A stretch of DNA of 64,000 nt from a virus. Taxonomy: Duplodnaviria; Caudoviricetes. Positions 43,255 through 61,019 of the stretch are shown piece after piece. Each line of letters starts with the position of its first letter. Positions within the stretch are counted from its first letter, which is position 1. The stretch spans positions 149,707 to 213,706 of the IMG/VR virus record IMGVR_UViG_3300043434_000734; one strand, given 5' to 3'. The notes below the pieces were generated by a model. It did not search any database and was not told the origin of the DNA. It was given only the letters and a program-made list of their open reading frames with translations. The translations under genes were made by a program, and so were the position numbers.

Positions 43255-43450
43255 TCTAATTTTCCAAAAAATTTTCTGGAATTTTTTTTTCGATTTCCAC
43301 ATAAAAAGTCAATTTTTGGGATTTTTTCTGGAAAAATTTCTGTCGAGGCATTGACCCCCCTTTTAGACCCCCCCAAAATACCCTATATAAGGGGGGATAC
43401 GGGAGGGGGGTCCCCCCACAGGGGTACGGGGGGAGGTGGATACCCCTATA
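43255..43450. other. A-tract region followed by G/C homopolymer runs
   Basis: Repeated TTTTCTGGA and A/T tracts, C-runs 43344-43369, G-runs of 6,3,6,4,6 at 43391-43433. Confidence 0.8.
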
Positions 43451-43614
43451 CCTGCCACACAAATAATCCAATGGTCCACCTGATCACACATCTTGTTATT
43501 TAGACTGATAATAAATTAAAAAAAAGTATCATATAAATTTGTTATATAATAAAACATATGTTATATTTGTATACACAATCAGAACGGGGACAGGTCTACT
43601 GAACACCACACACT

Positions 43615-43878
43615 ATGAGTACTTTATTTGTAACAATGTCAAATTTGAGAAACGAGTTAATGAAGAAGTATGGTAACAATCGTATCTTCTTAAAAGAAAT
43701 TATGAACTCGGATGAGGTAATGGTCATTTGTTTTAATGTCGGAGGTAACTACGATTCAATTGTTGGGGAGGTTGTATTAACTGATGAGGGTTGGACACTT
43801 GGGGAGTTTAACCACGAAGTCTTTGAGATGTTATTAGACCACCAAAAATCGTTTACTGAAATTGGAGTTTTGAATTAG
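43615..43878 (+). CDS. hypothetical early protein
   Basis: Own promoter and terminator. Confidence 0.8.
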   Translation: MSTLFVTMSNLRNELMKKYGNNRIFLKEIMNSDEVMVICFNVGGNYDSIVGEVVLTDEGWTLGEFNHEVFEMLLDHQKSFTEIGVLN

Positions 43879-44245
43879 ATTTGTTGTTCATCCAAAGTCA
43901 TCCCTCACTGAGAAATCGGTGGGGGATTTTTGGTTTATGGGGTAAATAGTTGACGGTAGTCAGGAAGGGGTGAAATGTTGTGTGGCAGTCTCACCTGTAA
44001 CGTCCCCTGATCTTATTGTGTGGCAAGTGATGTAAAATGTGGATAACTTTATTTGGTATAATCAAAATAGTTGTATATCTTTGTGGTTTGGTTTGTGTGC
44101 CACACAAGTTATGGGTACGTCCTCCGTCCCACCCCAAAAGTTAAGGGTATGTTAAATAAAAAATAATTTAATTTTTTTTATATAATAATTTGGATGGTAA
44201 ATTAGAATTGACTACCTTTACATAACACAAAAAAACACACACATT

Positions 44246-44812
44246 ATGACAACCCAAGTAAAAACCCAAATCGTAGTTAATGACCAAGAAATGGAATTGG
44301 TATTTCGTGAAGTTGAAAACCAAGTTCCCGTTCCATTTATTTCAGTTACTTTAAAAACCGAGTTTAAGGGTATGTTAAAGAAATGTAAGGAAGATGGAGA
44401 AATCAATCCTTACTACAAATCTTTACAAAAGGTTTCGACCAAAACTTTTCTTTTAGTAACTGACTATGTAAAAAGAGTCAAGGGAAATCGTACGAAAGAA
44501 GGTAAAGACCCCGAATCTTTTGTAGTTGAATCCCCAAGTGGTAAAGTTCATATTTCTAAATGTCTTTTAACTGACACCGAAACACACACCAAACGTTATG
44601 TAATGTTAGAGTGGTTTCCCGAAACAAAAGGTTCTACTGAATATTTTCAAGGTAACGACCGAATCGGTAAAGAGTTATTCTCAAAGTGGATGACCAATTA
44701 TGACACCTCAAATGAGAAACAAGGTTTGGAGAGAGAGGTTAAACCAATTACCCCACTATTCGAAAGTATCGTTTCCTTTCGAGTGAATGGAATGGAATAC
44801 ATTAGAGGTTAG
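44246..44812 (+). CDS. hypothetical early protein
   Basis: 188 aa; own promoter and terminator. Confidence 0.85.
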   Translation: MTTQVKTQIVVNDQEMELVFREVENQVPVPFISVTLKTEFKGMLKKCKEDGEINPYYKSLQKVSTKTFLLVTDYVKRVKGNRTKEGKDPESFVVESPSGKVHISKCLLTDTETHTKRYVMLEWFPETKGSTEYFQGNDRIGKELFSKWMTNYDTSNEKQGLEREVKPITPLFESIVSFRVNGMEYIRG

Positions 44813-45082
44813 TTCCCCTACTAACCGAAAAGACCACCCCGAAAGGAGTGGTTTTTTTTTGTCCAAAAAAAATTCTGAGGTTCGGAAAAAATTGTGTGGC
44901 AATTGTCATACATTAACACCATTTTAACAATTTAAATTTGGTGGGACGAAGACAAGAAAAAATTATTGTGTGGCAAATGCCAAATAAAAATTCGGTCGAG
45001 AAAAACCTTAACAAAGTGTTAACAAATAAAATCGTTGGATAATGATTATTGTTGTATATTTGTCATACAAACAAACCACGTT

Positions 45083-45277
45083 ATGACATCAACATTTTTA
45101 CCCATTGAGGAAATCCCAATGAAGTGTTTTAGAATCAAATTTCCCAACAACACCTACGATGTGTTCATCCCCGATACTACTGACAAGAGTAGTTGTGTGA
45201 ACATTACCGATGAAAATGGTGACCAAATCCCATTCAAGGATTGGGATAACGTTCTACAATTTTTACCAAACATTTAA
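45083..45277 (+). CDS. hypothetical early protein
   Basis: ATG 45083 after promoter at 45055. Confidence 0.7.
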   Translation: MTSTFLPIEEIPMKCFRIKFPNNTYDVFIPDTTDKSSCVNITDENGDQIPFKDWDNVLQFLPNI

Positions 45278-45529
45278 CAAATTAACCCCTTACGAAAGTG
45301 AGGGGTTTTTTTATGTGTAACCTTACACGTCCCTGAGAAATTTGTGTGGCGCCGATGTGGATAACTTTATTTTGTATAATAAAAATAGTTGTATACCTTT
45401 GTGGTCGGTTTTAATTTTGCCATACAAAATCCTCCACGGGTTCAGGACGTCCTAAAAAAATTAATAAAATGTTTGGTCTATAATAAATTATCTTGTATAT
45501 TTGTATCAACAAACAAACACAAATACATT

Positions 45530-45871
45530 ATGGAAACATTAGTAACTACCATTGTTAGAGATGAAAAAATTGAAAGTCTAAGAAAAGAATTGAATCAATT
45601 AGCACTTGAAAAATTCATAGATGAATTGTCATTCGAGGATATTAGAATAACAAGTTGTATCCATACAATTACGGGTATCAATTATTTGAAAATGTATGTT
45701 CATCTTCCCGAGTATCGTTCAAACACAAAGGACAAAGTGATTAATAAAAAACAAACAGCACATTTAGGTAAGTCGTCCAAAGTTTTCCCTTTAATGGTTA
45801 ATGAGAATTTTCGTAACTATATGGTAATAAAAATGAAAGATACACTTACACGAAAATTTTTAAACAAATAG
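45530..45871 (+). CDS. hypothetical early protein
   Basis: ATG 45530 after promoter at 45496. Confidence 0.8.
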   Translation: METLVTTIVRDEKIESLRKELNQLALEKFIDELSFEDIRITSCIHTITGINYLKMYVHLPEYRSNTKDKVINKKQTAHLGKSSKVFPLMVNENFRNYMVIKMKDTLTRKFLNK

Positions 45872-45875
45872 AGAT

Positions 45876-46082
45876 ATGAAAAAGACAACATTTTGGTTTT
45901 CAACTATTACGTTAATGTTTATGGGTACGTTATTATTCTTTGTAGGTTTAGAGAACTACCAAGATGAAATGTTACCAAAAGGAGTTAGAGAAAGTTTTTT
46001 GGTTGTGAGTGGTTTTGGTTTATTGGTTAGTATGTTTGGTTGTGTGTGTGGGGTGTTTAGTGATAAACGCCATTTGATTTAG
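45876..46082 (+). CDS. 2-TM small membrane protein
   Basis: Two hydrophobic helices. Confidence 0.75.
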   Translation: MKKTTFWFSTITLMFMGTLLFFVGLENYQDEMLPKGVRESFLVVSGFGLLVSMFGCVCGVFSDKRHLI

Positions 46083-46373
46083 TTCGTTTTTTTTGTTGTT
46101 CACATTAGAATCCCTCGGAGTTTTACTTCGGGGGATTTTTGTTTACCACAGATTTTCCGTCCTGATCCGCATCTTATATTGTGTGGCAACCATCTCACCG
46201 TGATTGTGATCAGACGGGATTTATTTGTGTGGCATTTGCCAGATGAATTGATCACCCGGATCAAACGGTCCCCTTATTTAGAATGAAAATAAATTAAAAA
46301 AAAGTATATAATTTATTTGGTGTATAATAAATTATGTATTATATTTGTGTATACAAAAAAACACAAACACACG

Positions 46374-47186
46374 ATGAAAATTACAAACGACTCAATCTGT
46401 TCGATGATAGTTTCAAAGGACTTCAAAGACCACCAAAGTAAATTCACATTAAACGTTCTTGAAACTAAAGGTTTAAACGATAACCAAAGTAGAATGTTAG
46501 GTGAGAAATTGAATTTCTACGAACAATCAGGTTTCCGTATGTTAGTATTCTCTAAAAAGTCAAAAGAGAACTTGGAAAACTATCTTATCCCTAAAGATAT
46601 CCGTTTAGATGTGTTGAGAAATTTACCTAATAGAAAAGATGTTATTCAAATTGATGAGAACAATTGTATCAAATATATGAAGGATGATGATACATTATGT
46701 TTTGCTACCCATTATAGAAAGTCGTCTGACTTCGGTACTAAACCTACTTGGGATAATATGATTCACACACATTTCTTTTATGTGGATTTAAAGACTGGTC
46801 ATATGGGATTTGATGAGTCAAACACATACACTAAAGAAGATGTTAAAGATGTCAAGACATTCATTGAGAAATTCTATTCACGTTTCTTAGTTGTAGTTAC
46901 TTACTTGGAATTAACCGATGTGACTTTGGATATTGTTGAGGGTGTGTTAGGTAAGAATAAAAATAAGAAGTCTAATTTGACTATTAGTAATAGTTCACGT
47001 TTCAATGTCATACACGTTAATACGAATTGGAACACAATGGTTATCAACGTTAGTACGTTTGGAGTACGTGGACATTGGAGATTACAACAATGTGGTGTGG
47101 GTAGAAGTCATTACAAGTATGTGTGGGTTAAACCTTATGAGAAAGGTCTCACTCGTAGACTACCTCAAAAAGAATTAGTTGGTTAA
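46374..47186 (+). CDS. phage hypothetical protein with VRGHWR motif
   Basis: C-terminal VRGHWRLQQCGVGRSHYKYVWVKPYEKG. Confidence 0.8.
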   Translation: MKITNDSICSMIVSKDFKDHQSKFTLNVLETKGLNDNQSRMLGEKLNFYEQSGFRMLVFSKKSKENLENYLIPKDIRLDVLRNLPNRKDVIQIDENNCIKYMKDDDTLCFATHYRKSSDFGTKPTWDNMIHTHFFYVDLKTGHMGFDESNTYTKEDVKDVKTFIEKFYSRFLVVVTYLELTDVTLDIVEGVLGKNKNKKSNLTISNSSRFNVIHVNTNWNTMVINVSTFGVRGHWRLQQCGVGRSHYKYVWVKPYEKGLTRRLPQKELVG

Positions 47187-47447
47187 TTGATTGTGTGTGT
47201 GGAACCCCCGATGAGAGTCGGGGGTTTTTTTGTGTCTGAAGGGTTCCGTCTCCTGAGCCATATCATATTTTGTGTGGCAGGTTCACCGTCAGGGCCGGCT
47301 GTGATCATCTTGTGTGGCAATTGTCATACATAGTATCCTTGCCAATCAATGTTGTGATTGACTTCAGGGTAGACCAAAAAAATAAATTAAATAATATTTG
47401 GTGTATAATAAATTATGTATTATATTTGTGTATTAAATGATAATAAA

Positions 47448-48059
47448 ATGAGAAAGAAAAAAATCGATTTAAGTTTAGTCACAATCCATACGAGTTCACT
47501 TGTTAGTGTTGACCCAAGAAATGATTTAGACGGCACTAATATCTATAACACAGAATTCATTCAGTTTATTACTGGTGAAATAAAAATGTACAATTTGGAT
47601 TCAGATAATGATGACGTTATCATTTTGGGTAATTTTAAATTGATGTTATTGTGGGGTACGGAAGAAATGATTTATGAATCGTTAGATAGTCACAGCAGAA
47701 ATACTGTAACATATGGTGACGAATTGTTCGATGAGGATATGAATGTGAAGGATGAATATTATGATTTGATGTGTGAAATATATGAGAATCGATTTTTAAT
47801 TGTTGAGGAGATTAATATAAATGAAGAATACCGAGGTCAGGGAGTGGTAAAAAAACTAATCGACACTATTAATTTAACATATCGTTGTCCAATGGTTTTA
47901 ATACCTTTTCCACTACAATATCAACCAACTCACGATAATGAAGAAGAATTAAAACTACTTCCCCCAATTAATGGTCCGATGAGAAAGGTTGTTAATTCCT
48001 ATAAGAGATGTGGGTTTAAGAAACCTAAACCGAGTTCACTCCTAATGGTTAAATGGTAA
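47448..48059 (+). CDS. GNAT-like acetyltransferase
   Basis: ININEEYRGQGVVKKLI and SYKRCGF. Confidence 0.65.
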   Translation: MRKKKIDLSLVTIHTSSLVSVDPRNDLDGTNIYNTEFIQFITGEIKMYNLDSDNDDVIILGNFKLMLLWGTEEMIYESLDSHSRNTVTYGDELFDEDMNVKDEYYDLMCEIYENRFLIVEEININEEYRGQGVVKKLIDTINLTYRCPMVLIPFPLQYQPTHDNEEELKLLPPINGPMRKVVNSYKRCGFKKPKPSSLLMVKW

Positions 48060-48359
48060 TCATAGTCCCACTCCAATCGAGTGGGATTTTTGTTTACCAC
48101 AGATTTTCCGTCCTGATCCGCATCTTATATTGTGTGGCAAAGAAACCTCCACCGTGATCTGTGCCGATCAGGTGCAATATGTTGTTTGGCAATTGCCACT
48201 CAATGTTCGGTGCTGTCACCGTCGCCTAATTCGTGTGGATAATGTGTGGAAAAAAAATAAAAAAAAAGTTTAAATATTTTTGGATATAATAAAAAAGGTT
48301 GTATCTTTGACATATCAAACAACCAAAGCGGTGGACAGCGTTACTGAACAAAATTTACT

Positions 48360-49094
48360 ATGTCATATTCAGGCAAAAAAATTAATGAAATTTACTCTAC
48401 TAAGGAGTACGCGAAATTCAAGTTAATCAAAGGTAATCGCGTTATCAAAAATCCTAAGATTAAAAAACTTGTTAAGTCGATGACTGAAAACGGGTGGTTA
48501 CCTGGCTCTTATGTAATCGTTAATAGCAAATGGGAAATCATCGATGGCCAACATAGAATCTTGGCAGGTATGCAATGTAATCTACCTATTGTTTATACAA
48601 TGGAGAAGAAAGCTGATGAGAAAGTAATGCGTGGTTTGAATACCGCAGGAGATAATTGGCAATTGAACGACCACTTACACGGATTTGTGGAAGATGGAAA
48701 TGAGCACTACATTAAGTTAGATAACTTGATGAAGGCTTTTCCCGAGTTAAAAATTACGGAGGCGATGATGTTATGTAAAAACGCTTATGTTGGTATTCCT
48801 CGTGGAACATTCGAGAGTGGTGAATTCACAACTAAGAATATGACCATAGCACATCAGTGGGGTGAGTACATTATGCGATTGAAACCTTTCGCTAAATTCT
48901 TTAACACGGGTATCTTTGTTAGAGCGTTAGTATGTTGTCTTACAAAGGAAGGTTTTAACTTCGAGGACTTTATGAGAAAGATTGAACTTCGACCAACTTC
49001 GTTAGTTAAGTGTGGAACGAGAGAACAATACATCGAATTATTTGAGAGTATCTACAACTATCGTAGAAGCGATAAATTGAACTTACGATACTAA
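48360..49094 (+). CDS. ParB-N-like domain protein
   Basis: GNR...LVKSM...VIVN...IIDGQHRI. Confidence 0.8.
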   Translation: MSYSGKKINEIYSTKEYAKFKLIKGNRVIKNPKIKKLVKSMTENGWLPGSYVIVNSKWEIIDGQHRILAGMQCNLPIVYTMEKKADEKVMRGLNTAGDNWQLNDHLHGFVEDGNEHYIKLDNLMKAFPELKITEAMMLCKNAYVGIPRGTFESGEFTTKNMTIAHQWGEYIMRLKPFAKFFNTGIFVRALVCCLTKEGFNFEDFMRKIELRPTSLVKCGTREQYIELFESIYNYRRSDKLNLRY

Positions 49095-49337
49095 GAGTTT
49101 GGTTGTGGTTAGAAAATTGGGGTGTTCGAAAGGACATCCCTTTTTTTATGCGTATGACACAACGCAGCTTGAGTCGCCGGCGTCAGGGAATGTTGTTTGG
49201 CAATTATACGTATTACATATGTTGCCACAAGAATTTGTGGCCAGGTCCCTGACGTAAAACTTTTAACAAAACATTCACAATAAAACTTGTAATATAATCG
49301 TTTAGTATGTATATTTGTATCACTAAACCCACTAACA

Positions 49338-49550
49338 ATGATTAACCACTCTTTCACAAAAGAACAACTAATTGGTCGTCGTATCGTATTACATAAGATG
49401 AACGATGACCCAAAGACAAACCCAATTCAACCCAATACAATGGGAACGATAATATCCGTAGATGATATGGACTATTATCAAGTGAAGTGGGACAATGGTA
49501 GAACTTTAAATCTACTACCCGATGAAGATGAATTTGAATTTATTAACTAA
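49338..49550 (+). CDS. DUF4314-like protein
   Basis: GRRIVLHKMNDDP...GTIISVDD...VKWDNGRTLNL. Confidence 0.8.
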   Translation: MINHSFTKEQLIGRRIVLHKMNDDPKTNPIQPNTMGTIISVDDMDYYQVKWDNGRTLNLLPDEDEFEFIN

Positions 49551-49561
49551 CACACAATACA

Positions 49562-49705
49562 ATGAAAGAAATGTTTACCACTCTTAGAGATGTCTACAAG
49601 GAAGACCCTAAGGATTTTATCATCACATTATTATTTGGAATCTTTATCTTTACGATGACTTGGTTCCTATTATGGTTTCACGGAACATTTATGTACGATA
49701 TGTGA
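49562..49705 (+). CDS. 47-aa single-TM protein not in the ORF track
   Basis: MKEMFTTLRDVYKEDPKDFIITLLFGIFIFTMTWFLLWF... Confidence 0.65.
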   Translation: MKEMFTTLRDVYKEDPKDFIITLLFGIFIFTMTWFLLWFHGTFMYDM

Positions 49706-49915
49706 ATGTTTCCCGTTTAAACTTTCTAACCCTCGACTTGTTCGGGGGTTTTTTGTTTCTGTGAACCTCATCAAAAATCTGAGTCTGTAAAAAATTGTGT
49801 GGCAACTGCCAATCAAAAAGTTATCAGAACCTTCTGATAAAAAAATAATTAATGAATTGTTTGGTATATAATATATTTTGTTGTATATTTGAGTACACAT
49901 TTAAACACAAATATT

Positions 49916-50116
49916 ATGGAAGGAATTCAATTTGACCGAAACCGACACGGAGGACTCTATGACAGAGGTAGTGCTGACAAATACTATGGTAGATGTAAAT
50001 CACCACATTGGTACCCCAAGGGTACGGGTCGTGGTAAACCTATTACTGACCTTACCGAAGAGGAAATCAAGGAGTACAATTTAGGTTACGATGAAGAAAC
50101 CGAAACCAAATTTTAA
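49916..50116 (+). CDS. hypothetical early protein
   Basis: HGGLYDRGSADKYYGR; own promoter and terminator. Confidence 0.8.
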   Translation: MEGIQFDRNRHGGLYDRGSADKYYGRCKSPHWYPKGTGRGKPITDLTEEEIKEYNLGYDEETETKF

Positions 50117-50362
50117 TGAAAGGGGAACGAAAGTTCCCTTTTTTTATTTCACCTGAAGTTACTGTGCGACGGGGGAAAGTTGTTTGGCAAGTTCACCTTC
50201 ACTGATCAGCACTGATCTATTTGTTTGGCAATTGCCACAAGATATTGTACAGTGGATCACAGGTGAATTTTCTTTCACAAAATTTTAACAAAAAAAGATT
50301 AAATAAATTTGGATGTATAAATAAAATAGTTGTATATTTGTGTACACAAAACAAACAACGTT

Positions 50363-51133
50363 ATGACTATTAAACTAAACACAAACTTATTCCCTATCAT
50401 TTCAGTGGCTATGTATGGAACTTACTTAGACCCTGATTCTATGTTTGATTCGTATATGATTGAATCCGATAAAGAGGAAGGTTATATACATTTTGATTTA
50501 GATTATTTTTGGAGTAATTTTCAATACGATAAATATCGATTGGCAATTCAGGATAGAGCACATTCATTCATCAACGGAAAACATTCCGAAAATAATGTGT
50601 GGGTATTAATTAAGGCTGGTGAAATCTATTCCCCTAAGTATTATAACTTTAGTAACGATGAAATTGATTTGGATGTAACCTTTAGTAAGTCCAAAGTTTT
50701 GAATGAGGTTAATAAAAACATTACTAAGTTTAATGAGTTCCTTAAAGAACGTTATAGTAGTTGTGATGGATTCAATTCATTCACCGCTAATAACTACATT
50801 GAGTGGTTGGAAGATTATAATGAGGATAAGGACACCGCAGTTGGTGCTGTTCTAACTTACTTATTCCAAGAAACGATTGAGGAAAATCGTGAGGGTTTTA
50901 TTCAACACGTTTGTGATGACTATATGGATTATCGTGAGTTCGTGGACTTCGAGGAACACGATGAGGAGGTGGTTGTATTACGTAACTACGTGTATGAAAA
51001 TTATAACACTATTGATGTGGATTCAATTGATGAGGAAACATTTAAATTTAAAGTATTTGGATTAGAGGATATAAAAAAATTATTAAAGGAGTTCGTATTA
51101 CAGATAGATAATAAGACCCTTTCACTTTTTTAG
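50363..51133 (+). CDS. hypothetical early protein
   Basis: YSPKYYNFSND motif; own promoter and terminator. Confidence 0.85.
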   Translation: MTIKLNTNLFPIISVAMYGTYLDPDSMFDSYMIESDKEEGYIHFDLDYFWSNFQYDKYRLAIQDRAHSFINGKHSENNVWVLIKAGEIYSPKYYNFSNDEIDLDVTFSKSKVLNEVNKNITKFNEFLKERYSSCDGFNSFTANNYIEWLEDYNEDKDTAVGAVLTYLFQETIEENREGFIQHVCDDYMDYREFVDFEEHDEEVVVLRNYVYENYNTIDVDSIDEETFKFKVFGLEDIKKLLKEFVLQIDNKTLSLF

Positions 51134-51336
51134 TTTGTTTGTATGTGTGTGTGAAACCCCTGATGAGAGTCGGGGGTTTTTTTGTTGTCATACAACTCCA
51201 CTTGAGTCTGAAGACAAAATATATTGTGTGGCAAGTATTACATCTTAACAAAAATTTAACAAAAAAAATAATTAATATATTTTGTTTCTAATAAAAATGT
51301 ATTATCTTTATATCACTAAACAAACACATCTACACA

Positions 51337-51537
51337 ATGGAACAAACAAACATTATCCGCAAAAAGGTTACCTTCGGTAACGACAACGAAATTAAAGGTT
51401 GGATTAAAACAACTGATGGTACAAAAACTAACTTCCTTATTAATGAGGGTGAAATCAAACAATGGGGAAATGCAACATCAACTGACACTAATCCATTCTT
51501 ATTAGGTTTACTTGAAATGTTGTATAGTCAAGAATAG
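51337..51537 (+). CDS. hypothetical early protein
   Basis: Own promoter and terminator. Confidence 0.75.
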   Translation: MEQTNIIRKKVTFGNDNEIKGWIKTTDGTKTNFLINEGEIKQWGNATSTDTNPFLLGLLEMLYSQE

Positions 51538-51779
51538 GTTGAATAAATTTTAGAACTCGAATTGGGAAACCCTACGACTTTTAGTTGTGGGGTTTTTTGT
51601 TGCTGTGCACTGTACCCGCACAGATCAGGGATAGATGTTGTTTGGCAATTGCCACACAATATGGATCCTGTAGATCACGCCGGCAAATTCTTTAACAAAA
51701 AATTATGAAAAATAAATTAAATAATTTTTTTTATAATAAAAATAGTTGTATATTTGTATGAACAAAAACAAACAAACAA

Positions 51780-52127
51780 ATGAAAAAAGAAATGAATTGC
51801 GACAAAAAAAGTTTCCCAAAGGGTTACTGGTCAAAGAAAGGTCAACCAACACAAAATGCATTGAATATGTTTTTCGTGTACTTAACAAATTGTCCAAGTG
51901 ATTGGAATGAAAAGAAAGGTAGACACAAAGAAGCTCTACAAAAGACCAGAGAGTATTTTGATGTTGACTATGGTATTGAATGTATGTTAACTTGGGGTAT
52001 CAACTTCGGCTGTAAAGATTCAGAAACTTCAAGTGAGAGACACCACGCAATGTCTTTATCTTATCACGACGCAAAAGGAATGATTGGTAAAGGTTATAGA
52101 TTTTGTGAATTAAAGATAGCAGCTTAG
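51780..52127 (+). CDS. hypothetical early protein
   Basis: Own promoter and terminator. Confidence 0.8.
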   Translation: MKKEMNCDKKSFPKGYWSKKGQPTQNALNMFFVYLTNCPSDWNEKKGRHKEALQKTREYFDVDYGIECMLTWGINFGCKDSETSSERHHAMSLSYHDAKGMIGKGYRFCELKIAA

Positions 52128-52233
52128 ATTTATTCCCTCACAGAAATGTGGGGGATTTTTTAAAAAAATTAAATAATAAATTTGGTGAATGATATAATTT
52201 TTGTATCTTTACATCATCAAACAAATAACACAT

Positions 52234-53151
52234 ATGGAAACACAAGAAAAAAATCCAATCATTACAGACTTATTAGATAAGTGTAACTTGAATTGGTCGG
52301 TGAGACAAGAAGGTATTGTAACTACAAGTGGTTTAGAAATACCTGATAGAATGGCTGTGGTTCGTGAAGACATCAACTACGCTTTCCCTGAGATTCGTTC
52401 AGGTGGTTATCATCCGTTTCAGAATTATGACTTTATGGATTTACTCTATAAGGTATCGGGAATGAAACCTGAAATCCAAGTTCATACTGGTGGTTCGTTT
52501 AAGAAAGGTGCACGTGTGTATATCCAATTAAAATCTGATGACCTAATGATTCAGAATGCGAATGGTGTTCACGATAAGATTGAGGGTTACTTGACGGGAG
52601 TTAATTCCTTCGATGGCTCAACTTCTCTGGCATTCGGGCCGAGTAATATCACTATTAGCTGTCAGAACACTTTCTTTGCAGCCTTCCGTGAGTTGGACAC
52701 AAAGATTAGACACACAAGTAATATGGTTGTTCGTGTAGACCAAATTTGTAGAGACTTAGAAAAGACAATTCAATTAGAGAAAGAGTTGTTCGATGATATT
52801 AAGTTGTTATCCAATACAAGCTTCGATGAAGCAATGAAGATTAAAGTAACGAAAGCTTTATTTAAGTTATCACCCGAAGTGGACATCTACGATTTAGATT
52901 CTATCCCTGGTAAGACACGTAACAATATGAGCCGTTTCTTTATTGACTTGAATGGTGAGTTACAACAAAAAGGAGATTCAATGTGGGGATTGTTTAGTGG
53001 AGTAACGAAGTACACCACACACAGCCACGGAAAAGATAACGCCGATAACACCGAAGTTAAAATGTTCGATGAGATTGGTAAACGTGAGAAGAACATCTTT
53101 AAGTCTTTGGTCGAAGAAGGTAATAGAAAGAAGTTATATGCTTTTGCGTAA
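52234..53151 (+). CDS. DUF932-family protein
   Basis: LNWSV, YHPFQN, GARVYIQ, NSFDGSTS, ISCQNT, IRHT. Confidence 0.88.
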   Translation: METQEKNPIITDLLDKCNLNWSVRQEGIVTTSGLEIPDRMAVVREDINYAFPEIRSGGYHPFQNYDFMDLLYKVSGMKPEIQVHTGGSFKKGARVYIQLKSDDLMIQNANGVHDKIEGYLTGVNSFDGSTSLAFGPSNITISCQNTFFAAFRELDTKIRHTSNMVVRVDQICRDLEKTIQLEKELFDDIKLLSNTSFDEAMKIKVTKALFKLSPEVDIYDLDSIPGKTRNNMSRFFIDLNGELQQKGDSMWGLFSGVTKYTTHSHGKDNADNTEVKMFDEIGKREKNIFKSLVEEGNRKKLYAFA

Positions 53152-53417
53152 TACATTATAGGGTTAATCGTTAAATAGAAATCCTCTCGGTTCTGCTGAG
53201 GGGATTTTTTGTGCGCACGTATTACAGCGCAAACTAAATAGCAACCGTGCGCTGCAACAGCTGATCATATTGTCTGGCAAGTTAAACGTATTAGATCTGC
53301 CACACAACATCCCGAATGGAGATCACAGGTGAATCATCTTAACAAAAAATTAACTAAATAATTTGTTTGGTAATAAAAATACTTGTATATTTGTGTACAC
53401 AACAAAACAAATACATT

Positions 53418-53756
53418 ATGACTAACAAAAGAATTACCGAAGTTTGTTTCCCTCTTTTAGAAAGAGAGTTCGACTTAAAAGAAACGATGAAAGTATTAAG
53501 TTACAATCCCACAATATTTTGGAGTTGGGGAGTAAGTACAAGATTAAACATCAACGACAAAGGTCTACTATTAGAAGTTAATGGACATCATCACAAGGGT
53601 AGTGTGTTAATCACATTAGGTTGGAACGACACTTATTGTGTGTACATCATCAACAATAGAGGTAGAATCTTAAATGAATATAAAGAAGTTTATTTCGACG
53701 TGTTAACTGAATTGATTGACAATCGAATTGAAAGAATTAAAGAATATAGTTTGTAG
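53418..53756 (+). CDS. hypothetical early protein
   Basis: WSWG...VNGHHHKGSVLITLGWNDTY. Confidence 0.8.
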   Translation: MTNKRITEVCFPLLEREFDLKETMKVLSYNPTIFWSWGVSTRLNINDKGLLLEVNGHHHKGSVLITLGWNDTYCVYIINNRGRILNEYKEVYFDVLTELIDNRIERIKEYSL

Positions 53757-54011
53757 TTTTTTTTGTTTTAAATACACTTTGAAATCCCTCGGTCTTTTAG
53801 GTCGGGGGATTTTTGTTTCCACCTGAAGTTACAGTTGGGTCTGGTGGAATTTGTTTGGCAAGTGCCACACAATAATTTACAGACTCAGAACCCAAAAAAA
53901 AATTGTCACAGATAAAAAAAATAAATTAAATAATTTATTGTATAATCAGAATTAATAACTATCTTTGATAACACAATCAAAACGGGGACAGGTTTCTGAA
54001 CAACAAAGAAT

Positions 54012-54302
54012 ATGTTAGAATTCGAATTTCAAATGGACGACATTAGTAATGACATTTATGTTGAGGGTGAGTTTACCGACAACATCACGGAAGAACACGT
54101 GTTAAACATTCTTCACTTTGTTAGAAACCAAGAGTGGTTTAGTGAGGGGAATAAAACGGAAGGTATCATCACCTTAACCGAAGAGAGTACCGAAGTAATG
54201 TGGAATAAAGTCTTTATGGTCATCACAGATGATGGGGATGTCTTGGATGAAGTTGATGGACCGATAACCCACGTAATTAATAAACAATTTTACAAATTGT
54301 AA
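54012..54302 (+). CDS. acidic hypothetical early protein
   Basis: Own promoter and terminator. Confidence 0.8.
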   Translation: MLEFEFQMDDISNDIYVEGEFTDNITEEHVLNILHFVRNQEWFSEGNKTEGIITLTEESTEVMWNKVFMVITDDGDVLDEVDGPITHVINKQFYKL

Positions 54303-54505
54303 AATGAACCCCCACCGAAAGGTGGGGGTTTTTTATTGTCCACAGATTTCCCGTCCTGATCAGCTCGGAATGTTGTTTGGCAATTGCCACACAATATCCA
54401 TTGATCAACCGGTCGACGAAAAATTCCTTTAACAAAAAATTAACTAAATAAATTTGTGAATAATAAAAATTGTTGTATATTTGTATTGTACTAAACAAAC
54501 AACCA

Positions 54506-54703
54506 ATGACAAATTACCAAGTATTATCCCCTGATGGTTTTACGATTGAATTCGATAGACCATACTACACTTCAAGAGAAAAAGCTTTAGAAGCATTTCA
54601 CGATTGGAAAGAACGTTATAGAAAACAAGGTTACTATTCCTCGAACAACGGAAGAATCCCTTTGGATGAATTAGAAAATCATTGTACAATTCAATTAGTA
54701 TAA
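54506..54703 (+). CDS. hypothetical early protein
   Basis: ATG 54506 after promoter at 54476. Confidence 0.75.
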   Translation: MTNYQVLSPDGFTIEFDRPYYTSREKALEAFHDWKERYRKQGYYSSNNGRIPLDELENHCTIQLV

Positions 54704-54705
54704 CT

Positions 54706-54924
54706 ATGATAAAGTCAGTAGAAGAAATGGACACCAAGATTGAAATTAATCTACTTGGACCGGACGGAAATGTATTCAACCTTATATCGGTGGGTGGGAG
54801 ATTGTGTAAACAACTCGGTAAGAATTCGGAGATGTTTACTCGCCGTATGATGAGTGGAGACTACGAAAATGCTGTTAACACATTCGAAGAATACTTCGGA
54901 GATTTTGTAACCCTTTATAGATAA
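54706..54924 (+). CDS. phage hypothetical protein
   Basis: INLLGPDGNVF...MMSGDYE...FG. Confidence 0.8.
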   Translation: MIKSVEEMDTKIEINLLGPDGNVFNLISVGGRLCKQLGKNSEMFTRRMMSGDYENAVNTFEEYFGDFVTLYR

Positions 54925-54925
54925 T

Positions 54926-55123
54926 ATGGATAATTTTTTAAAACCTTATATGTTGGGGGAAACTCCACAAGTAACCGAAACTAAAATTAATAATCTGTCT
55001 ATGATAGATGTTAAGTGGCATTATGATTTTATCGGAGGTAAATCCGAAAGATTAAAAGTAATTAACCATTTGAAAAAGGTTGGTTATGTGTATCAAAATA
55101 GTTTTTACATTAAAATTTTGTAA
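54926..55123 (+). CDS. hypothetical protein
   Basis: Closely spaced ORF in operon. Confidence 0.65.
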   Translation: MDNFLKPYMLGETPQVTETKINNLSMIDVKWHYDFIGGKSERLKVINHLKKVGYVYQNSFYIKIL

Positions 55124-55141
55124 CCCTTTATAGATAATGAA

Positions 55142-55333
55142 ATGATAATCCCAATTAATTCAGTGGCAAGTGTATTAGACACCGACACCAAAATCGTTTA
55201 TGCTAAATTTCAAAAAGGTGGGTATGACATCACGAGTGGTGTACACATAGACAACCTTTCTAAAAAGTTCGTGGATGATATTAGTGAAGAAGATATAATT
55301 TTAATTAATCAATTTGTTGGTATAATAAAATAA
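55142..55333 (+). CDS. hypothetical protein
   Basis: 63-aa ORF in operon. Confidence 0.65.
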   Translation: MIIPINSVASVLDTDTKIVYAKFQKGGYDITSGVHIDNLSKKFVDDISEEDIILINQFVGIIK

Positions 55334-55369
55334 ATTGTATATCTTTACATCACACAAAAAAAACAAGTT

Positions 55370-55573
55370 ATGGAAAAGTACAAAGTAGTTAGTGGTGGTT
55401 CCCCAAACGAACTATCAAACAAGGTAAACGAATTACTCGAAACGGGTGAATGGTTTATCAATGGTGGACATCAGGTTGTAATACTTCGACAACAAAATCG
55501 TTATCGTGGAGACCAACATATTGATACCTTAAACGAACTTGAATATACTCAAACCCTTATAAAGAAAAACTAA
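55370..55573 (+). CDS. DUF1737-like small protein
   Basis: YKVVSG...LSNKVNELL..GEW.I.GG. Confidence 0.55.
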   Translation: MEKYKVVSGGSPNELSNKVNELLETGEWFINGGHQVVILRQQNRYRGDQHIDTLNELEYTQTLIKKN

Positions 55574-55574
55574 T

Positions 55575-55841
55575 ATGGAAACATTTGATTTTTATTTAGA
55601 CCAAAAACATACCATTTGGTATCGTAATACATTCACTATCGAAGCTGAGACTTTGGAAGAGGCTAAGGCTAAGGTTATTGAAATTTGTAATAACCCTACG
55701 GAAGATTTACCGAGTGATGAATGGGAAACCTTATTCGACACGGTGGAAGGATTAACAGTGGGAGATAACGGAGGTCAGGCGACTGAGGAAGTCTATACAC
55801 ATTCGGGAGAAATGATTTGGGATAACATTAAAACTAATTAA
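55575..55841 (+). CDS. acidic hypothetical protein
   Basis: FTIEAETLEEAKAK motif. Confidence 0.75.
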   Translation: METFDFYLDQKHTIWYRNTFTIEAETLEEAKAKVIEICNNPTEDLPSDEWETLFDTVEGLTVGDNGGQATEEVYTHSGEMIWDNIKTN

Positions 55842-55842
55842 G

Positions 55843-56190
55843 ATGTCAGAGTTCACAAGAAAATACATAGAATTAAAAATAGAAAGTTTAGAGTATATTA
55901 GAGAATTCTTTAAGAAGAATAATATAACTCGTTATGAATTCGTATCACTTGAAGAAATTGAGTCGGACGACTTCTCGGATAATCACTGGCAATATCCACA
56001 AGCAACAGTTGTTGGTAGACACGACCATACATACTATTATACTATTACAAGTATTACATTAGAAGATGGTAACCTATGGTTCAATGGTGTAAGTGTTGGA
56101 GAAGATAGTGATGACTACAACTTCGGAGAGCTTGAGGTAGATGTGGCTTGTTTATGTGATTCAGCAGATTTATTAACTTTAAATAACTAA
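55843..56190 (+). CDS. acidic hypothetical protein
   Basis: 115-aa ORF in operon. Confidence 0.75.
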   Translation: MSEFTRKYIELKIESLEYIREFFKKNNITRYEFVSLEEIESDDFSDNHWQYPQATVVGRHDHTYYYTITSITLEDGNLWFNGVSVGEDSDDYNFGELEVDVACLCDSADLLTLNN

Positions 56191-56194
56191 TAAA

Positions 56195-56515
56195 ATGAAC
56201 AGAGAAATAGTAGATACGAAAAACATTCTTGACCTATCGAACATAGATTCGTGGGACTTAATTAAGGAATTAAAATCTCGTGGGTATTACACTCAATTGA
56301 ATTATAGTCCGAGTGATGTTGATATGATGTTAGAAAGTATTAATAGTGATAGAGATGAGAAAGAAGGGAACATCATTATGTTATGTCAAGAAGATAAGGA
56401 AGCAATTCTCGAAGATTGTTTTAACACCGACTGGTATTGTGAGAGAATGAATGATGATTTGGTGGAACATATCTTGGACAACTACGATGACGAAACGTAT
56501 TACAATAAAAGTTAA
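56195..56515 (+). CDS. acidic hypothetical protein
   Basis: 106-aa ORF in operon. Confidence 0.75.
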   Translation: MNREIVDTKNILDLSNIDSWDLIKELKSRGYYTQLNYSPSDVDMMLESINSDRDEKEGNIIMLCQEDKEAILEDCFNTDWYCERMNDDLVEHILDNYDDETYYNKS

Positions 56516-56591
56516 ACATATTAAAAAAAAGTTTGGCTGTTAAAAAAAAGTGTATTACATTTGCACTATCAATTAATAAAATCCGTATATA

Positions 56592-56771
56592 ATGACAACG
56601 AAAATTATTTTATCAAACGACAAGAAATGCTACGATTTGTGGTATAGTGTTGATGGTCTTAATTACAAGTTACATAAGAGTGGTTTTAAAAGTATAGACT
56701 CGGCAATAAAAGAATCAACAATAATATCTGGCACACAAAAATTATTAAGAGACATCTTATTAAGAAAATAA
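56592..56771 (+). CDS. 59-aa protein not in the ORF track
   Basis: [22 protein letters not shown]...; promoter at 56556, terminator near 56804. Confidence 0.65.
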
Positions 56772-57076
56772 AGGTTAGGTTAGTAAGTTTAGTAGTTAGT
56801 AGTCCCTCATCAGAAATGGTGGGGGATTTTTTTATGTCTGAAGTCTCACCTGCGGATCTTCCAGGAAGATATTGTGCGGCAAATATTTCACACTAGTTTA
56901 CCCAGTAATCTGTACTGGTCCTTCCAGGAAAAGTTGTGTGGCAGTTGCCAAACAATATTCCCCTGTGGCCCGTGATCAGATCAGTAACTTCACAAAACTT
57001 TAACAAAAAAAGATTAAAATAAATTTGGTGTATACAAGTATATGACTTATCTTTGTGTACACAAGAACAAAATACT

Positions 57077-57697
57077 ATGGCTAACTATTGTCAAAACACG
57101 ATTACTATTAAGGGAGACAAACTCACCCTTAAGAATATCATCAACATACTCGATAAAGAATCTGAAGAAGGATTATTCGAGAGATTGATTGGTACCAAAG
57201 CTGGAGTTAGTAAACAAGAGTACGAATCTAACTCATATAACTTCAACCTTGAGTATTGGGGATGTAGAAGTGATGTGGATATTGATGGTGAATTCAGATA
57301 CGAGGTGATGAGTGATACTGAGTTGGTCCTATATCCTGACACACCATATTCTCCACCAATCCCATTCTGTCAAACTCTATGTATAAACTATGGTGTAGAT
57401 ATCCATATGTTTTATTATGGGATGGAGGACAACTTCTGTGGTGTGACCACTCTTACTAAAGAAGGTTTCATTAATGAGGAGGATTATCTTTATCTTGATG
57501 GTTTATACATATTCAACGAAATGGATTTATTTTGGTCTGAAGTTGAGTCACGTATGGAAAGTCATATTGAATATTGTGAGAACTATGACGTGGAAGAATT
57601 CATAGAGAACAATGTTGAAGGGGTACCAACCGAAGTCAAAGACGAAATCAGAGAGATGTTTTCACAAATATTACAAGATTATCAAATTATAAATTAA
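57077..57697 (+). CDS. YubB / DUF1281-like ferredoxin-fold protein
   Basis: MANYCQNTITI, NLEYWG, DTPYSPP, NFCG. Confidence 0.75.
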   Translation: MANYCQNTITIKGDKLTLKNIINILDKESEEGLFERLIGTKAGVSKQEYESNSYNFNLEYWGCRSDVDIDGEFRYEVMSDTELVLYPDTPYSPPIPFCQTLCINYGVDIHMFYYGMEDNFCGVTTLTKEGFINEEDYLYLDGLYIFNEMDLFWSEVESRMESHIEYCENYDVEEFIENNVEGVPTEVKDEIREMFSQILQDYQIIN

Positions 57698-57702
57698 ATC
57701 AT

Positions 57703-57957
57703 ATGTTAATGGCAAGTAAAATTAAACCTGAAAAGTATTCTATCGAAGAATTCAACGAGTGGACCAAGTATATTGGTTTCGGAACAAGATTCGATTATAC
57801 CAACTTTGAGAACCGAGAGTTGGTAAGAAGAATCGAGGAAGCTAAATTTGCTCAGGACAATCCAGTGGTAAAGGTTCCGAGTGATAAACTTGAGAGTCTG
57901 AAGACGGACCAGGGAAATATATTCTCTGGCATCAAATCAATTTTAAATTTCTTTTAA
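57703..57957 (+). CDS. hypothetical protein
   Basis: 84-aa ORF. Confidence 0.7.
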   Translation: MLMASKIKPEKYSIEEFNEWTKYIGFGTRFDYTNFENRELVRRIEEAKFAQDNPVVKVPSDKLESLKTDQGNIFSGIKSILNFF

Positions 57958-57971
57958 AACAAATAAATAAA

Positions 57972-58487
57972 ATGGGTAGAGTAAACAAAAGCACCGAGGG
58001 TGTGTTCGTCAACATTGTAGGGTCGAACTCGGAGATTAGTAAGTACAAACAGTTCCTTCACAGATCAGCGTCGACGATGTCGTCTGGCAAGTTCAGTTCT
58101 AAGTACGACGGTCTGTCAACAGCATATAACAATAAGTGTACTGTCATTAAGATGGACCTTGAACAATTGGCACAGTTGGAAGTAATAATGATGCAAATCC
58201 GTTCAGTGGATGAGATTGAAGGTAACATCGTATGGTTCCAAATGAGAAACAAGTACGTGTATGCAAGATGTCCTTTCTATAGAACAGACCAATCCATTAA
58301 TGAGATGAGATGTCTTATCGATAATCTTGAGTTTTATTTCACAGACGTTCAGGATACAGATCTGTCAATATTGTCTGGCAATCCTGAATTCGTGGAGAAG
58401 ACCAAGGAGAAACTTATTGCCAAGATGGAAGATGAAATTGGTGAGAACGTTCGTAACTACGAGAAAGTATACGGAAAAATATCCTAA
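57972..58487 (+). CDS. hypothetical protein
   Basis: 171-aa ORF. Confidence 0.75.
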   Translation: MGRVNKSTEGVFVNIVGSNSEISKYKQFLHRSASTMSSGKFSSKYDGLSTAYNNKCTVIKMDLEQLAQLEVIMMQIRSVDEIEGNIVWFQMRNKYVYARCPFYRTDQSINEMRCLIDNLEFYFTDVQDTDLSILSGNPEFVEKTKEKLIAKMEDEIGENVRNYEKVYGKIS

Positions 58488-58528
58488 AAAAAATTTGTAT
58501 ATTCTAACTTAATCATTATCTTTACTGT

Positions 58529-58861
58529 ATGACAAACCAACAACTACTACAACGTCGTGACAACCTCCACCGTGAGATTGTGGTGTCTACTATGAAGTTA
58601 AATCAGCTCAACGATGAGTTTGATTTAATCTTGAAGGAACCGTTCGAATTCGAACACGCGTATTACAGACCATATAGTAGTGAGGGTGGTCGAGAACTAC
58701 TGAAGGTTACGGGTGTTGACGGAACCACGGGTGAACTCCTGTGTGAGAATGAGGACCGTCAATTAAGATTCGTCTACTATCACGAGCTAACACTCGAAGA
58801 ACTGACTCGTCTACACCGTAGTGTATTACAGGGAGAATATGTATTACAAATCCTAATATAA
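58529..58861 (+). CDS. hypothetical protein
   Basis: Promoter at 58517. Confidence 0.75.
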   Translation: MTNQQLLQRRDNLHREIVVSTMKLNQLNDEFDLILKEPFEFEHAYYRPYSSEGGRELLKVTGVDGTTGELLCENEDRQLRFVYYHELTLEELTRLHRSVLQGEYVLQILI

Positions 58862-58868
58862 CAACCAA

Positions 58869-59504
58869 ATGAAAACAATCACACTTTCTAATGAAGTAAT
58901 GGTATCGGACCCTTGTTACACTGTCGGTACCTGGTGTCAACACAAGTTGACCAATGTATTACCTGGTGAGTATCAAACCAAGGTAATGAAGTTTCAGGAC
59001 CCTATGTGGGGTAACCGATGTTCATTCATCATTGCTGTCCACAAGGATTATAACACAGATGAGAAGCTCAATTGGAGAAAGGTGGTGGCGGATATTGGTG
59101 TGGACTCAGGTCAGGCTGGTTTCTTCAGTATGGATAGTTACCGAAAGGATGAGGTGTTCGTAACAGGTATATCTGAACATTCCAAGAGATATGGTCAATA
59201 CTCCAAGAAAGAACAAGAAGGTGAGGAATGGTATGGTCACATATGTGATTTAACTGATAACTCCGAACGTTGGGGTACCTATTCAAATGGTATTGTTTCT
59301 TCTTCAGGTATCGGGGACGGATCATACGAACTTCGTGTGGCAAAACACAAGGGTAAGATTGTGGGTATACTACTTGACTTCTTTATGGAGAAGTTGACAG
59401 GACCTGTGATTGAGTCTATGAGAACCTCTGAGATGTTGGGGGACGTATGTGGAATCTGTGGGGAAGATAATGTAGATGGTGTATCTTGTAACTGTAAAAA
59501 CTAA
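58869..59504 (+). CDS. DUF4241-like protein
   Basis: VSDPCY, GVDSGQAGFF, SSGIGDGSY. Confidence 0.7.
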   Translation: MKTITLSNEVMVSDPCYTVGTWCQHKLTNVLPGEYQTKVMKFQDPMWGNRCSFIIAVHKDYNTDEKLNWRKVVADIGVDSGQAGFFSMDSYRKDEVFVTGISEHSKRYGQYSKKEQEGEEWYGHICDLTDNSERWGTYSNGIVSSSGIGDGSYELRVAKHKGKIVGILLDFFMEKLTGPVIESMRTSEMLGDVCGICGEDNVDGVSCNCKN

Positions 59505-59509
59505 CTATA

Positions 59510-59644
59510 ATGAAAAAAATTCTAACGGACCTTGAGTGGTTCATCGACTTCTACCTGATGATCCTGTTGTATAATCCAAACAAGGTACATCGGTACGATG
59601 CTTGGATGACCAAGAAGTGGGGGACAAGATACACAGGAAAATAA
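59510..59644 (+). CDS. 44-aa protein not in the ORF track
   Basis: MKKILTDLEWFIDFYLMILLYNPNK... Confidence 0.55.
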   Translation: MKKILTDLEWFIDFYLMILLYNPNKVHRYDAWMTKKWGTRYTGK

Positions 59645-59768
59645 CTACGATCCACAGAGGATCAGCTCTTTGATATCGTCTGGCAACGACACGTAAAAAA
59701 TATTGGGTATAATTTTTTATTACGAATATTGTTTGTTATATTTTAAATGTAACTTAAATAAATTCATT

Positions 59769-59948
59769 ATGAAAAAAACTACCAACACAGGAACAAGATC
59801 AACTTATACTCCTGTATCCAACAATGTTTACCACGATGGTTATTCTTATCGTGTACGTGTATCAATCAATGGTGAGAAGATCAGCAAGAACTTTTCTAAC
59901 AAGAGAAAGGCAATTGTATATCGTAACTCTTTATTGAAGTCAGCATAG
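59769..59948 (+). CDS. small AP2/Arm-like DNA-binding protein
   Basis: YRVRVSINGEKISKNF...KAIVYRN. Confidence 0.55.
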   Translation: MKKTTNTGTRSTYTPVSNNVYHDGYSYRVRVSINGEKISKNFSNKRKAIVYRNSLLKSA

Positions 59949-60119
59949 GACAATATTCTATTTGGACACTTGAGACCCTCACAGTGTGAGGGTTTTTTGT
60001 TTCCCACCTGAAGTACTCAGATGATCTGATCAGGATCAGGACTCCAATATTGTCTGGCAAGATATCACCACCCGACGGGATCACACTGTAACATATTGTG
60101 TAGCATAATATTTATTACT

Positions 60120-61019
60120 ATGAAGATATTGAAAGTACTTAAGGAACAGGAAGAGACTAACCCAAACCTACAGACCATCGACGGTGGAACCTTTGGGTTT
60201 ATGAAGGAGTCATTGGATAAGATTCAAAAGGAGTTAGATGAGACCAAATCGAGGATTTCCTACGAGCTGTTCGACTCACCTGACGGAACCTACAGATGTC
60301 ACACTCAATTCAATGTTACGAGATCATCTGAGACGGAGCTGAAGTTGTCTGGCAAGATATACCTAATCTTAAAAGAACCAACCATTCCGTTGGACTTCCT
60401 ATCAGTATCAGCCAAGTGGTTGTTAAATAAAATAAATGAATTATGTCCTGACGTATTTAATACGGTAAAGGATGGTAGATATCAAGAAGGATCTATTACC
60501 TTTAACTTCCACGACGTCTTCATATCATATAACGATTCCTTCTTAGGTCTATACGATTATATGGAACGTGCGTATTACAATACTAACGTGGTTAACCTAA
60601 TCCCAATAGAAGAGTTAATGAATGACAGATCCATTGATTTCAACTATCAACTCGAACCATCTCAGGTCCCAACCTTCAGTGACGATTATTCTCTGGCAAT
60701 AGAAAGAATAATAAAGAAAGTCAAATCAGTATATAAGGGATTCCGTAAGGGAACATTCAAGGGACACGAATATGAGTATAAAGAAAACCCTCCAAGAATA
60801 TCTATCCATCCTAGAGACGATGACTACAACCCACAAACCAAAGTAATACATCCGAAGTTCAGAGTTCAGATTAATGGTGGTTATGTATGGTTAGACGGTA
60901 AACCCACCAGTGAGTTTGGTGCTTTACCCGAAAATAGATTCACGGACACCCTCGTCATTAAACAGTTCGACGAATATATTAAAGCCCGTTTCGAACAGTT
61001 CGGTATTAAGATTCTATAA
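60120..61019 (+). CDS. hypothetical protein
   Basis: ATG 60120; N-terminal VLKEQEE. Confidence 0.75.
   Translation: MKILKVLKEQEETNPNLQTIDGGTFGFMKESLDKIQKELDETKSRISYELFDSPDGTYRCHTQFNVTRSSETELKLSGKIYLILKEPTIPLDFLSVSAKWLLNKINELCPDVFNTVKDGRYQEGSITFNFHDVFISYNDSFLGLYDYMERAYYNTNVVNLIPIEELMNDRSIDFNYQLEPSQVPTFSDDYSLAIERIIKKVKSVYKGFRKGTFKGHEYEYKENPPRISIHPRDDDYNPQTKVIHPKFRVQINGGYVWLDGKPTSEFGALPENRFTDTLVIKQFDEYIKARFEQFGIKIL

Follow-up and report, generated by a model that had tools for sequence, protein, structure and literature searches.

Dam methylation gates several regulatory sites: GATC with Lrp at pap, GATC with OxyR at agn43 and at mom of phage Mu, and pIN of IS10. The same tetramer is bound in clusters by SeqA at oriC and at the dnaA promoter of E. 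coli, and we know of no use of SeqA in Bacteroidota. Staphylococcal phage K is GATC-free. Haloviruses of the HF1 group are free of both GATC and CTAG (PMC7230728), and in phage P1 the pac element gathers seven TGATCA/G hexamers, whose Dam methylation controls binding and cleavage by pacase (PMC10028697). Here we describe the GATC sites of a 64,000-nucleotide stretch of viral DNA (Duplodnaviria; Caudoviricetes; positions 149,707 to 213,706 of IMG/VR record IMGVR_UViG_3300043434_000734), hereafter the window. GATC is strongly depleted in this DNA, yet it is concentrated in the spacers of an array of small genes, beside a recurrent box, TTGTKTGGCA. We suggest that this contrast reflects two independent processes, a genome-wide purge and positive selection for GATC beside the box.

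The array lies at 43.2–61 kb and consists of about 18 small, co-oriented cassettes with one spacer between each; these are early genes, probably with roles in host takeover or anti-defence. Within a spacer, a terminator hairpin is followed by a G+C-richer control zone with TTGTKTGGCA boxes, often paired as a 22-bp palindrome, and then by an A-rich stretch, a promoter and the next start codon. Word counts were compared with the expectation of a maximal-order Markov model. Outside the spacers GATC occurs 40 times against 180.6 expected (observed/expected ratio, O/E, 0.22), making it the second most depleted of all 4-mers, and every NGATC context shares in the depletion. The first 43.2 kb hold 29 copies where 120.7 are expected (O/E 0.24), while the cassette open reading frames (ORFs) between 43.6 and 56.8 kb (9476 nt) hold none where 30.3 are expected (P=7e-14). 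A first-pass annotation of the sequence had judged GATC to be scarce in the first 43 kb and nearly absent from the cassette ORFs up to 57.7 kb. Both impressions survive the Markov correction on which that annotation had made its case depend, although its estimate of roughly 20 copies in the first 43 kb was too low.

The only 4-mer more depleted than GATC outside the spacers is CATG (0 against 167 expected), and it is missing from the entire 64-kb window, spacers included (0 against about 170 expected). Markov-corrected under-representation, the signature of restriction-site avoidance, was found for both words. Among the relatives introduced below, CATG has an O/E of 0.48–0.85, and a value of 0.00 is reached only in the window phage. 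This total, lineage-specific loss points to a CATG-specific restriction system in the host. The O/E of GATC ranges from 0.00 to 0.90 across the clade, and one relative, G003 (an IMG/VR contig of 82434 bp; loci L164–L168), has no GATC in 82 kb against 284 expected. The phage, and in general its clade, counter-selects GATC genome-wide, as is usual for phages under restriction-modification pressure, with the strength and the target of the purge varying by lineage. GTAC is a further lineage-specific avoided word, in the relative G001, where it is depleted genome-wide (O/E 0.63) and nil in the zones around boxes (0 against 8.7 in shuffles).

The spacers depart sharply from this background. The 19 spacers contain 30 GATCs in all; 24 of these are in the first 17 spacers (to 57 kb), where 2.9 would be expected at left-arm density (P=2e-14). 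Every one of the 28 positions given in the first-pass annotation exists, and two more (59649 and 59660) lie in the spacer at 59.6 kb. When the box zones were shuffled with boxes masked and dinucleotide composition preserved (n=300), they gave 9.0±2.7 GATCs, and 0 of the 300 shuffles reached the observed 29; the density in this retained class of sites is 15.8 per kb. CATG is nil in the same masked zones against 11.3 in shuffles. Restriction avoidance thus extends to the zones, and it is GATC in particular that escapes it there.

Palindromes as such are not what is enriched. GC-rich 6-bp palindromes as a class stand at chance level in the box zones (9 against 8.1±2.6), and a general enrichment of palindromes in the window was rejected (119 against 112 for 4 bp, 33 against 31 for 6 bp, 9 against 8.6 for at least 8 bp). 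The words GCCGGC, GTGCAC, GTGCGCAC, CAGCTG, ACCGGT, GTCGAC, TGGCCA and CCAGG, with which the spacers had been said to be packed, occur in 1–3 copies each. Nor is the enrichment the product of one copied ancestral spacer, a source that the same annotation had left open. The 12-nt flanks of the 30 spacer sites fell into 29 clusters at an identity threshold of 70% and into 27 clusters at 60%, and the sole exact duplicate is a segment of 58 nt containing site 48115 and shared with 46132–46189 (site 46164).

The position of the sites is as distinctive as their number. Boxes were oriented as TTGTKTGGCA, with one mismatch allowed and offsets counted from the first T. Of the 39 array GATCs (43.2–61.4 kb), 30 then sit 4–30 nt beyond the TTGT end of a box and 17 have offsets of -17 to -12; for 11 of 12 control tetramers that interval holds 0–12%, the remaining one being CCGG, with just 6 sites. 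The other 31 GATCs of the window, which lie elsewhere than in the array, all lack a link to a box. ORF-internal GATCs in the rightmost part of the array (58063, 58359, 59320, 60322) each adjoin a full or one-mismatch box, and palindromic double boxes carry GATC on both outer sides, for example at 51623–51676 and 54358–54406. What is reproducible, as in a Dam-type gated operator, is the place of GATC beside a putative regulator site, here outside the core box. The features, with positions in the window, are as follows.

1–43217, mostly minus strand: left arm of phage genes, a GATC-purged background; CATG nil and no box-adjoining GATC.
43453–43485: spacer 1; reverse box 43453–43462 and GATC 43482, offset -23 from the TTGT end.
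43615–56771, plus strand: cassette ORFs of the early array; zero GATC.
43978–44025, plus strand: spacer 2; boxes 43978 and 44016, GATC 44009 at offset -7 (TGATC-N3-box).
46164–46262, plus strand: spacer 5; GATC 46164, 46208, 46250 and 46259 (the last two 9 nt apart), boxes 46179 and 46225; offsets -15 and -17.
47270–47319, plus strand: spacer 6; boxes 47270 and 47310, GATC 47303 at offset -7; the homologous upstream module has CTGAGC in place of CTGATC.
48115–48191, plus strand: spacer 7; GATC 48115, 48156 and 48166, boxes 48130 and 48182; offsets -15, -26 and -16.
50180–50258, plus strand: spacer 10; GATC 50204 and 50214 (10 nt apart) and 50255, boxes 50180 and 50221 with an imperfect inverted partner; offsets -17 and -7; has CTGATCAG.
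51623–51676: spacer 12; palindromic double box 51638–51659, GATC 51623, 51664 and 51673; offsets -15, -8 and -17 from the two TTGT ends.
53263–53324: spacer 14; boxes 53270 (plus) and 53298 (minus), GATC 53263, 53294 and 53321; offsets -7 and -17; the reverse box has GATC 53294 directly at its GGCA end.
54358–54406: spacer 16; palindromic double box 54373–54394, GATC 54358 and 54403; offsets -15 and -12; has CTGATCAG.
56855–56982: spacer 17; one-mismatch box 56872, palindromic box 56934–56955, GATC 56855, 56974 and 56979; offsets -17, -22 and -27.
58063–58380, plus strand: ORF-internal units; GATC 58063 with one-mismatch box 58080 (offset -17), GATC 58359 with box 58371 (offset -12).
59320–59342, plus strand: ORF-internal unit; GATC 59320, one-mismatch box 59333; offset -13.
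59649–59685, plus strand: unit of the 59.6-kb spacer; GATC 59649 and 59660, one-mismatch box 59676; offsets -27 and -16.
60023–60105, plus strand: spacer 19; tandem GATC 60023, 60028 and 60034, box 60050, GATC 60079, one-mismatch box 60096; offsets -27, -22, -16 and -17.
60322–60354, plus strand: ORF-internal unit; GATC 60322, box 60345; offset -23.

The 19-nt triple-GATC run of spacer 19 recurs with different flanks in the relative L003. An apparent 5-bp periodicity in the offsets (-7, -12, -17, -22, -27) is partly made by tandem GATCAG runs and is not relied on.

The window is part of an uncultured freshwater jumbo phage whose host is probably a member of the Bacteroidota, because it is syntenic with IMG/VR viral contigs of 310–336 kb (protein identity 40–88%) and freshwater or lake metagenome runs contain near-identical DNA. 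Further, its phage-borne UDP-galactopyranose mutase gene (glf) has its nearest bacterial homologues in freshwater Sediminibacterium, Aquirufa and Cytophagaceae, and the promoters of the cassettes have TAnnTTTG, the Bacteroidota promoter consensus. G+C of the 64-kb window is 33%. Scans of 30 window proteins with PHROG and Pfam gave almost no annotation, array DNA found no match in a phage collection, and no relevant paper was found to contain the words of the box.

Related contigs were retrieved via the box sequence; two of them, G001 and G005, are rated complete (G005 with terminal repeats). Compared with the remainder of the same sequence, the density of GATC at up to 30 nt from a box is raised 24-fold in the window, 61-fold in L003 and L031 (one 316-kb contig), 9.4-fold in G002, 2.6-fold in G005 and 2.5-fold in L002. 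It is also raised 4.5-fold in G004, which is not GATC-depleted (genome-wide O/E 0.90). The coupling is lacking in G001 (0.4-fold), and G003, with zero GATC, yields no ratio. Across 239 pooled boxes, 48 of the 91 GATCs at offsets -40 to -4 fall at -17 to -12, where 14.8 are expected (p=1e-15), and the preference persists without the window (36 of 67, p=2e-12). GCGC favours the same interval (19 of 39 pooled, p=2e-6), with zone/outside ratios of 18–157-fold in G001, G002, G004 and L002. When all 256 tetramers at -19 to -10 in 207 unique box flanks were counted without bias, GCGC (23 against 1.8) and GATC (39 against 8.7) ranked first and second, in an order unchanged after leaving out the window and its closest relative. 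The two are mixed inside single clusters of L031 and L075, and in G004 the flanks of box-linked GATCs are varied, including CGATCG, AGATCT and GGATCC. The class and position of the site are maintained, not each copy. In the box zones of G003 CCGG is enriched (12 in zone, 6.3-fold), mostly as TCCGGATA just upstream of the box.

Could the sites simply be tolerated? GATCs in a protein-occupied or methylated zone might be shielded from restriction and be spread among spacers by slippage or gene conversion, with no function of their own. Individual sites do turn over fast between relatives, G001 and G003 do without them, and spacer modules are exchanged, as seen in the joints of lake-metagenome contigs in spacers and in the repeat families of the window. 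Relaxed selection, however, predicts the shuffled number of about 9 GATCs in the zones, not 29, and it accounts neither for the preferred offset, which six sequences show again amid unrelated flanks, nor for enrichment in G004, which does not purge GATC. The CATG result speaks against any general exemption of the zones. We consider such neutral persistence improbable.

The first-pass annotation had also proposed, as one option, protected decoy sites that titrate restriction enzymes or attract methylases. Spelled out, clustered sites on the first DNA to enter would occupy the enzymes of the host in one of these ways and so protect the rest of the genome. What speaks for this is the bare contrast between purge and clustering. 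Restriction enzymes turn over, however, and a cut in the array would be lethal; clustered sites would stimulate type IIE restriction enzymes, which are known to respond to them in this way. CATG, the most strongly avoided word, is nil in the spacers, a fixed offset to the box would be needless, and the coupling is present in G004 without genome-wide avoidance. We find the decoy proposal unsupported and regard it as very improbable. More generally, an avoided word and its local cluster can stem from two unrelated selective forces, and alone they are no proof of an anti-restriction device.

We favour a different explanation, in which GATC would be kept against the purge as the outer subsite of a bipartite cis-element, GATC, N8-13, TTGTKTGGCA. 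The place of this element is the control zone, which is not transcribed and which separates the terminator of an early cassette from the Bacteroidota-type promoter of its successor; in related phages GCGC fills the same place. Selection for the tetramer appears to operate without a purge (G004), to yield under an absolute one (G003) and to be met by GCGC in G001. That the coupling is functional, with the tetramer as an accessory subsite, we put at a probability of about 0.75.

Within this explanation, gating by methylation is the most likely mechanism, although we hold it at somewhat less than even odds. The first-pass annotation had named a methylation-sensing switch, tuning early genes to the methylome of the host or previous host, as its alternative to decoys, and that proposal remains viable. 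N6-methyladenine (m6A) at GATC would be separated from the TGGCA core of the box by about two helical turns and would share its face of the helix, and could alter the occupancy of a box-binding protein complex; methylcytosine at GCGC in relatives could play the equivalent part. Expression of the approximately 18 early cassettes would then be set by DNA methylation, from a phage methyltransferase or from the previous host. We rank this mechanism first because only the bare 4-bp palindrome is common to the lineages and because GATC and GCGC are classic methyltransferase targets; both words are also selected against elsewhere in these sequences, and P1 pac offers a precedent for reading phage TGATCA/G clusters by way of Dam methylation. 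Methyltransferase content, examined in the relatives, offers candidates. The complete relatives encode a divergent D12-class, Dam-family methyltransferase with a DPPY motif (G001 222915–223889 and G005 121758–122603; 78% identity between the two) together with variable ones, namely a second D12 enzyme in G005 and three N6_N4 enzymes in G001. Dam-family genes are patchy in the candidate host families (28 of 81 and 34 of 81 genomes).

Several observations weigh against a methylation-read bipartite element. Instead of falling within the core box, the GATCs stand beyond it, at loosely held distances (-7, -12, -15 to -17, -22, -27). Site-by-site conservation is poor: L003 retains 9 out of 15 aligned sites and G002 retains 0 out of 8. 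The argument therefore rests on class-level and positional enrichment. As for the enzymes, the conserved D12 protein scores 50.8 bits, far below the curated Dam cut-off of 114.85, and a simple pattern check did not find a Dam-like hairpin motif in it; G001 keeps this enzyme and has no GATC at its boxes. No C5 cytosine methyltransferase for GCGC was found in G001 or G002.

Another point on this side is the biased flanks and paired sites of the window, L003 and G002, which suit direct recognition by a dimeric protein. The flank bias towards TGATC/GATCA amounts to 36 against 5.2 expected (6.9-fold), CTGATC/GATCAG is enriched 78-fold in the zones, and the window, G002 and L003 each contain three copies of a perfect 8–10-bp palindrome, CTGATCAG or CCTGATCAGG; the window spacers hold 10 TGATCA and 3 CTGATCAG. 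Four GATC pairs are spaced 9–10 nt apart, one helical turn, and the short tandem GATCAG runs resemble binding-site arrays growing by slippage. The (C)CTGATCAG(G) motif with its TGATC half-sites could form a second operator, at which a dimeric DNA-binding protein of phage or host origin would act together with the protein on the box; methylation would then be uninvolved, and the GCGC lineages would use a variant protein. G001, with its methyltransferase retained and its boxes bare of GATC, would fit such a scheme. The flanks in G004, however, are of all kinds, leaving only 4 bp common to the clade, and a single sequence-specific protein does not readily explain GATC and GCGC at one offset, mixed in clusters. 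The search for a binding protein yielded no convincing candidate: just one gene, 53418–53756, is distributed like the GATC-rich lineages, a weak lead because the match could be chance and the product has no recognisable DNA-binding domain. We judge direct recognition nearly as likely as methylation gating, and a tentative reading in its own right.

Other modules share the control zones. The DnaA-box word TGTGGATAA stands in constant orientation at 44038, 45356 and 48234 in spacers and at 61225 in the right border of the window, as well as at 10786, and likewise in spacers of L003 and G001. In relatives, CGTATTACA follows many boxes by 2–3 nt (G001 zones, loci L006 and L007), and a few GTATTAC copies occupy the same post-box place in the window (49210, 51235, 53219, 61055). 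This is another conserved module of the zones. An (A/C)AGGTGAA module lies directly 3′ of GATC in the window (50255–50268, 53321–53334) and in L003, and occurs without GATC in G001; GATC therefore looks like a later add-on to an older module. Dense GATC at spacings of multiples of 9 nt in G001 (230000–245000 and 294000–295200; loci L016, L017 and L019) falls inside giant ORFs of 1631 and 1200 aa. These GATCs probably encode a repetitive, collagen-like protein and have no relation to the box-linked ones.

Towards its right end (57077–61019) the array has a higher G+C (38%) and much weaker GATC depletion (15 against 19.7 expected), and it carries there the ORF-internal boxes at 58371 and 60345. 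The history of this segment, or its regulatory layout, may differ from that of the rest. Beyond it, an HNH endonuclease gene adjoins the array at 62186–63292.

When the region 43200–61200 was compared with lake metagenomes, contigs were found that fuse spacers distant in the window, for example 45471 to 51219 and 46295 to 53783. Contigs join different spacers, and cassette order and content therefore vary among natural relatives. Such shuffling raises the possibility that a nuclease of phage or host, guided into place by the box, cuts at the tetramers, yielding T5-like nicks, breaks for cassette shuffling, or self-complementary ends for rejoining. Besides the variable order and gene content, some repeat families (D18, D20) start exactly at (T)GATC, the HNH gene lies beside the array, and the consensus of the major nicks of T5 contains GCGC (PMC3517423). 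On the other side, a palindromic site nicked on both strands amounts to a double-strand break, and among the matches listed most metagenome joints map to the A-rich, promoter-bearing portion of the spacers instead of to GATC. No DpnII-type nuclease was found in the five relatives searched, nor in five candidate host genomes. A site-specific recombination site was rejected as well: serine recombinase and resolvase families had no match in the five relatives, and a tyrosine recombinase was found in G005 only. Cleavage at these sites is, in our view, slightly less probable still than neutral persistence.

If methylation is indeed what is read, the array could work as an epigenetic reader. An incoming 330-kb phage genome would report the methylation laid down by its previous host or by its own enzymes and set the expression of about 18 cassettes, the tetramer being swapped as methylase specificities change. 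This extension of the favoured explanation is speculative, and we would not call it likely.

How, then, does the array compare with the systems described above? It shares with Dam-gated sites a GATC beside or within a putative regulator region and a tetramer that is the sole constant; reading of methylation is possible, and the phage lineage encodes Dam-family methyltransferases. It departs from them in that the array GATCs lie 8–13 bp outside a 10-bp box, at least 30 units are distributed over about 18 control regions, the probable Bacteroidota host has no known SeqA/MutH context, GCGC is an alternative, and both the regulator and the methylation are putative. The likeness to SeqA clusters lies in GATC pairs about one helical turn apart and in the DnaA-box-like TGTGGATAA near four spacer or border regions. 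Unlike those clusters, the array sites are tied to a phage-specific box and not to an origin, and a SeqA-type cluster was rejected, there being no PF03925 match in G001–G005, the five related phage sequences. As in P1 pac, clustered TGATCA/G words form a phage element. P1, however, has one 161-bp packaging site inside pacA, whereas the array has many dispersed intergenic units upstream of early promoters; these are scattered across 17 kb and at least 12 control regions, never within a terminase gene, and do not make a pac-like packaging site.

With restriction-avoiding phages the window shares a Markov-corrected depletion of 4-bp palindromes (GATC 0.22–0.36, CATG 0.00, and GATC 0.00 in G003). 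Avoidance alone does not predict local enrichment, and the array retains an avoided word at high density. New here is an array-wide bipartite unit with a measured offset and two alternative tetramers, set in a freshwater clade of Bacteroidota phages. A functional coupling would offer a tractable case of a phage keeping an otherwise purged word as part of a control element. If, in addition, methylation is read, Dam-style gating would extend from single enterobacterial loci to an array-wide arrangement in Bacteroidota jumbo phages, with GATC and GCGC interchangeable.

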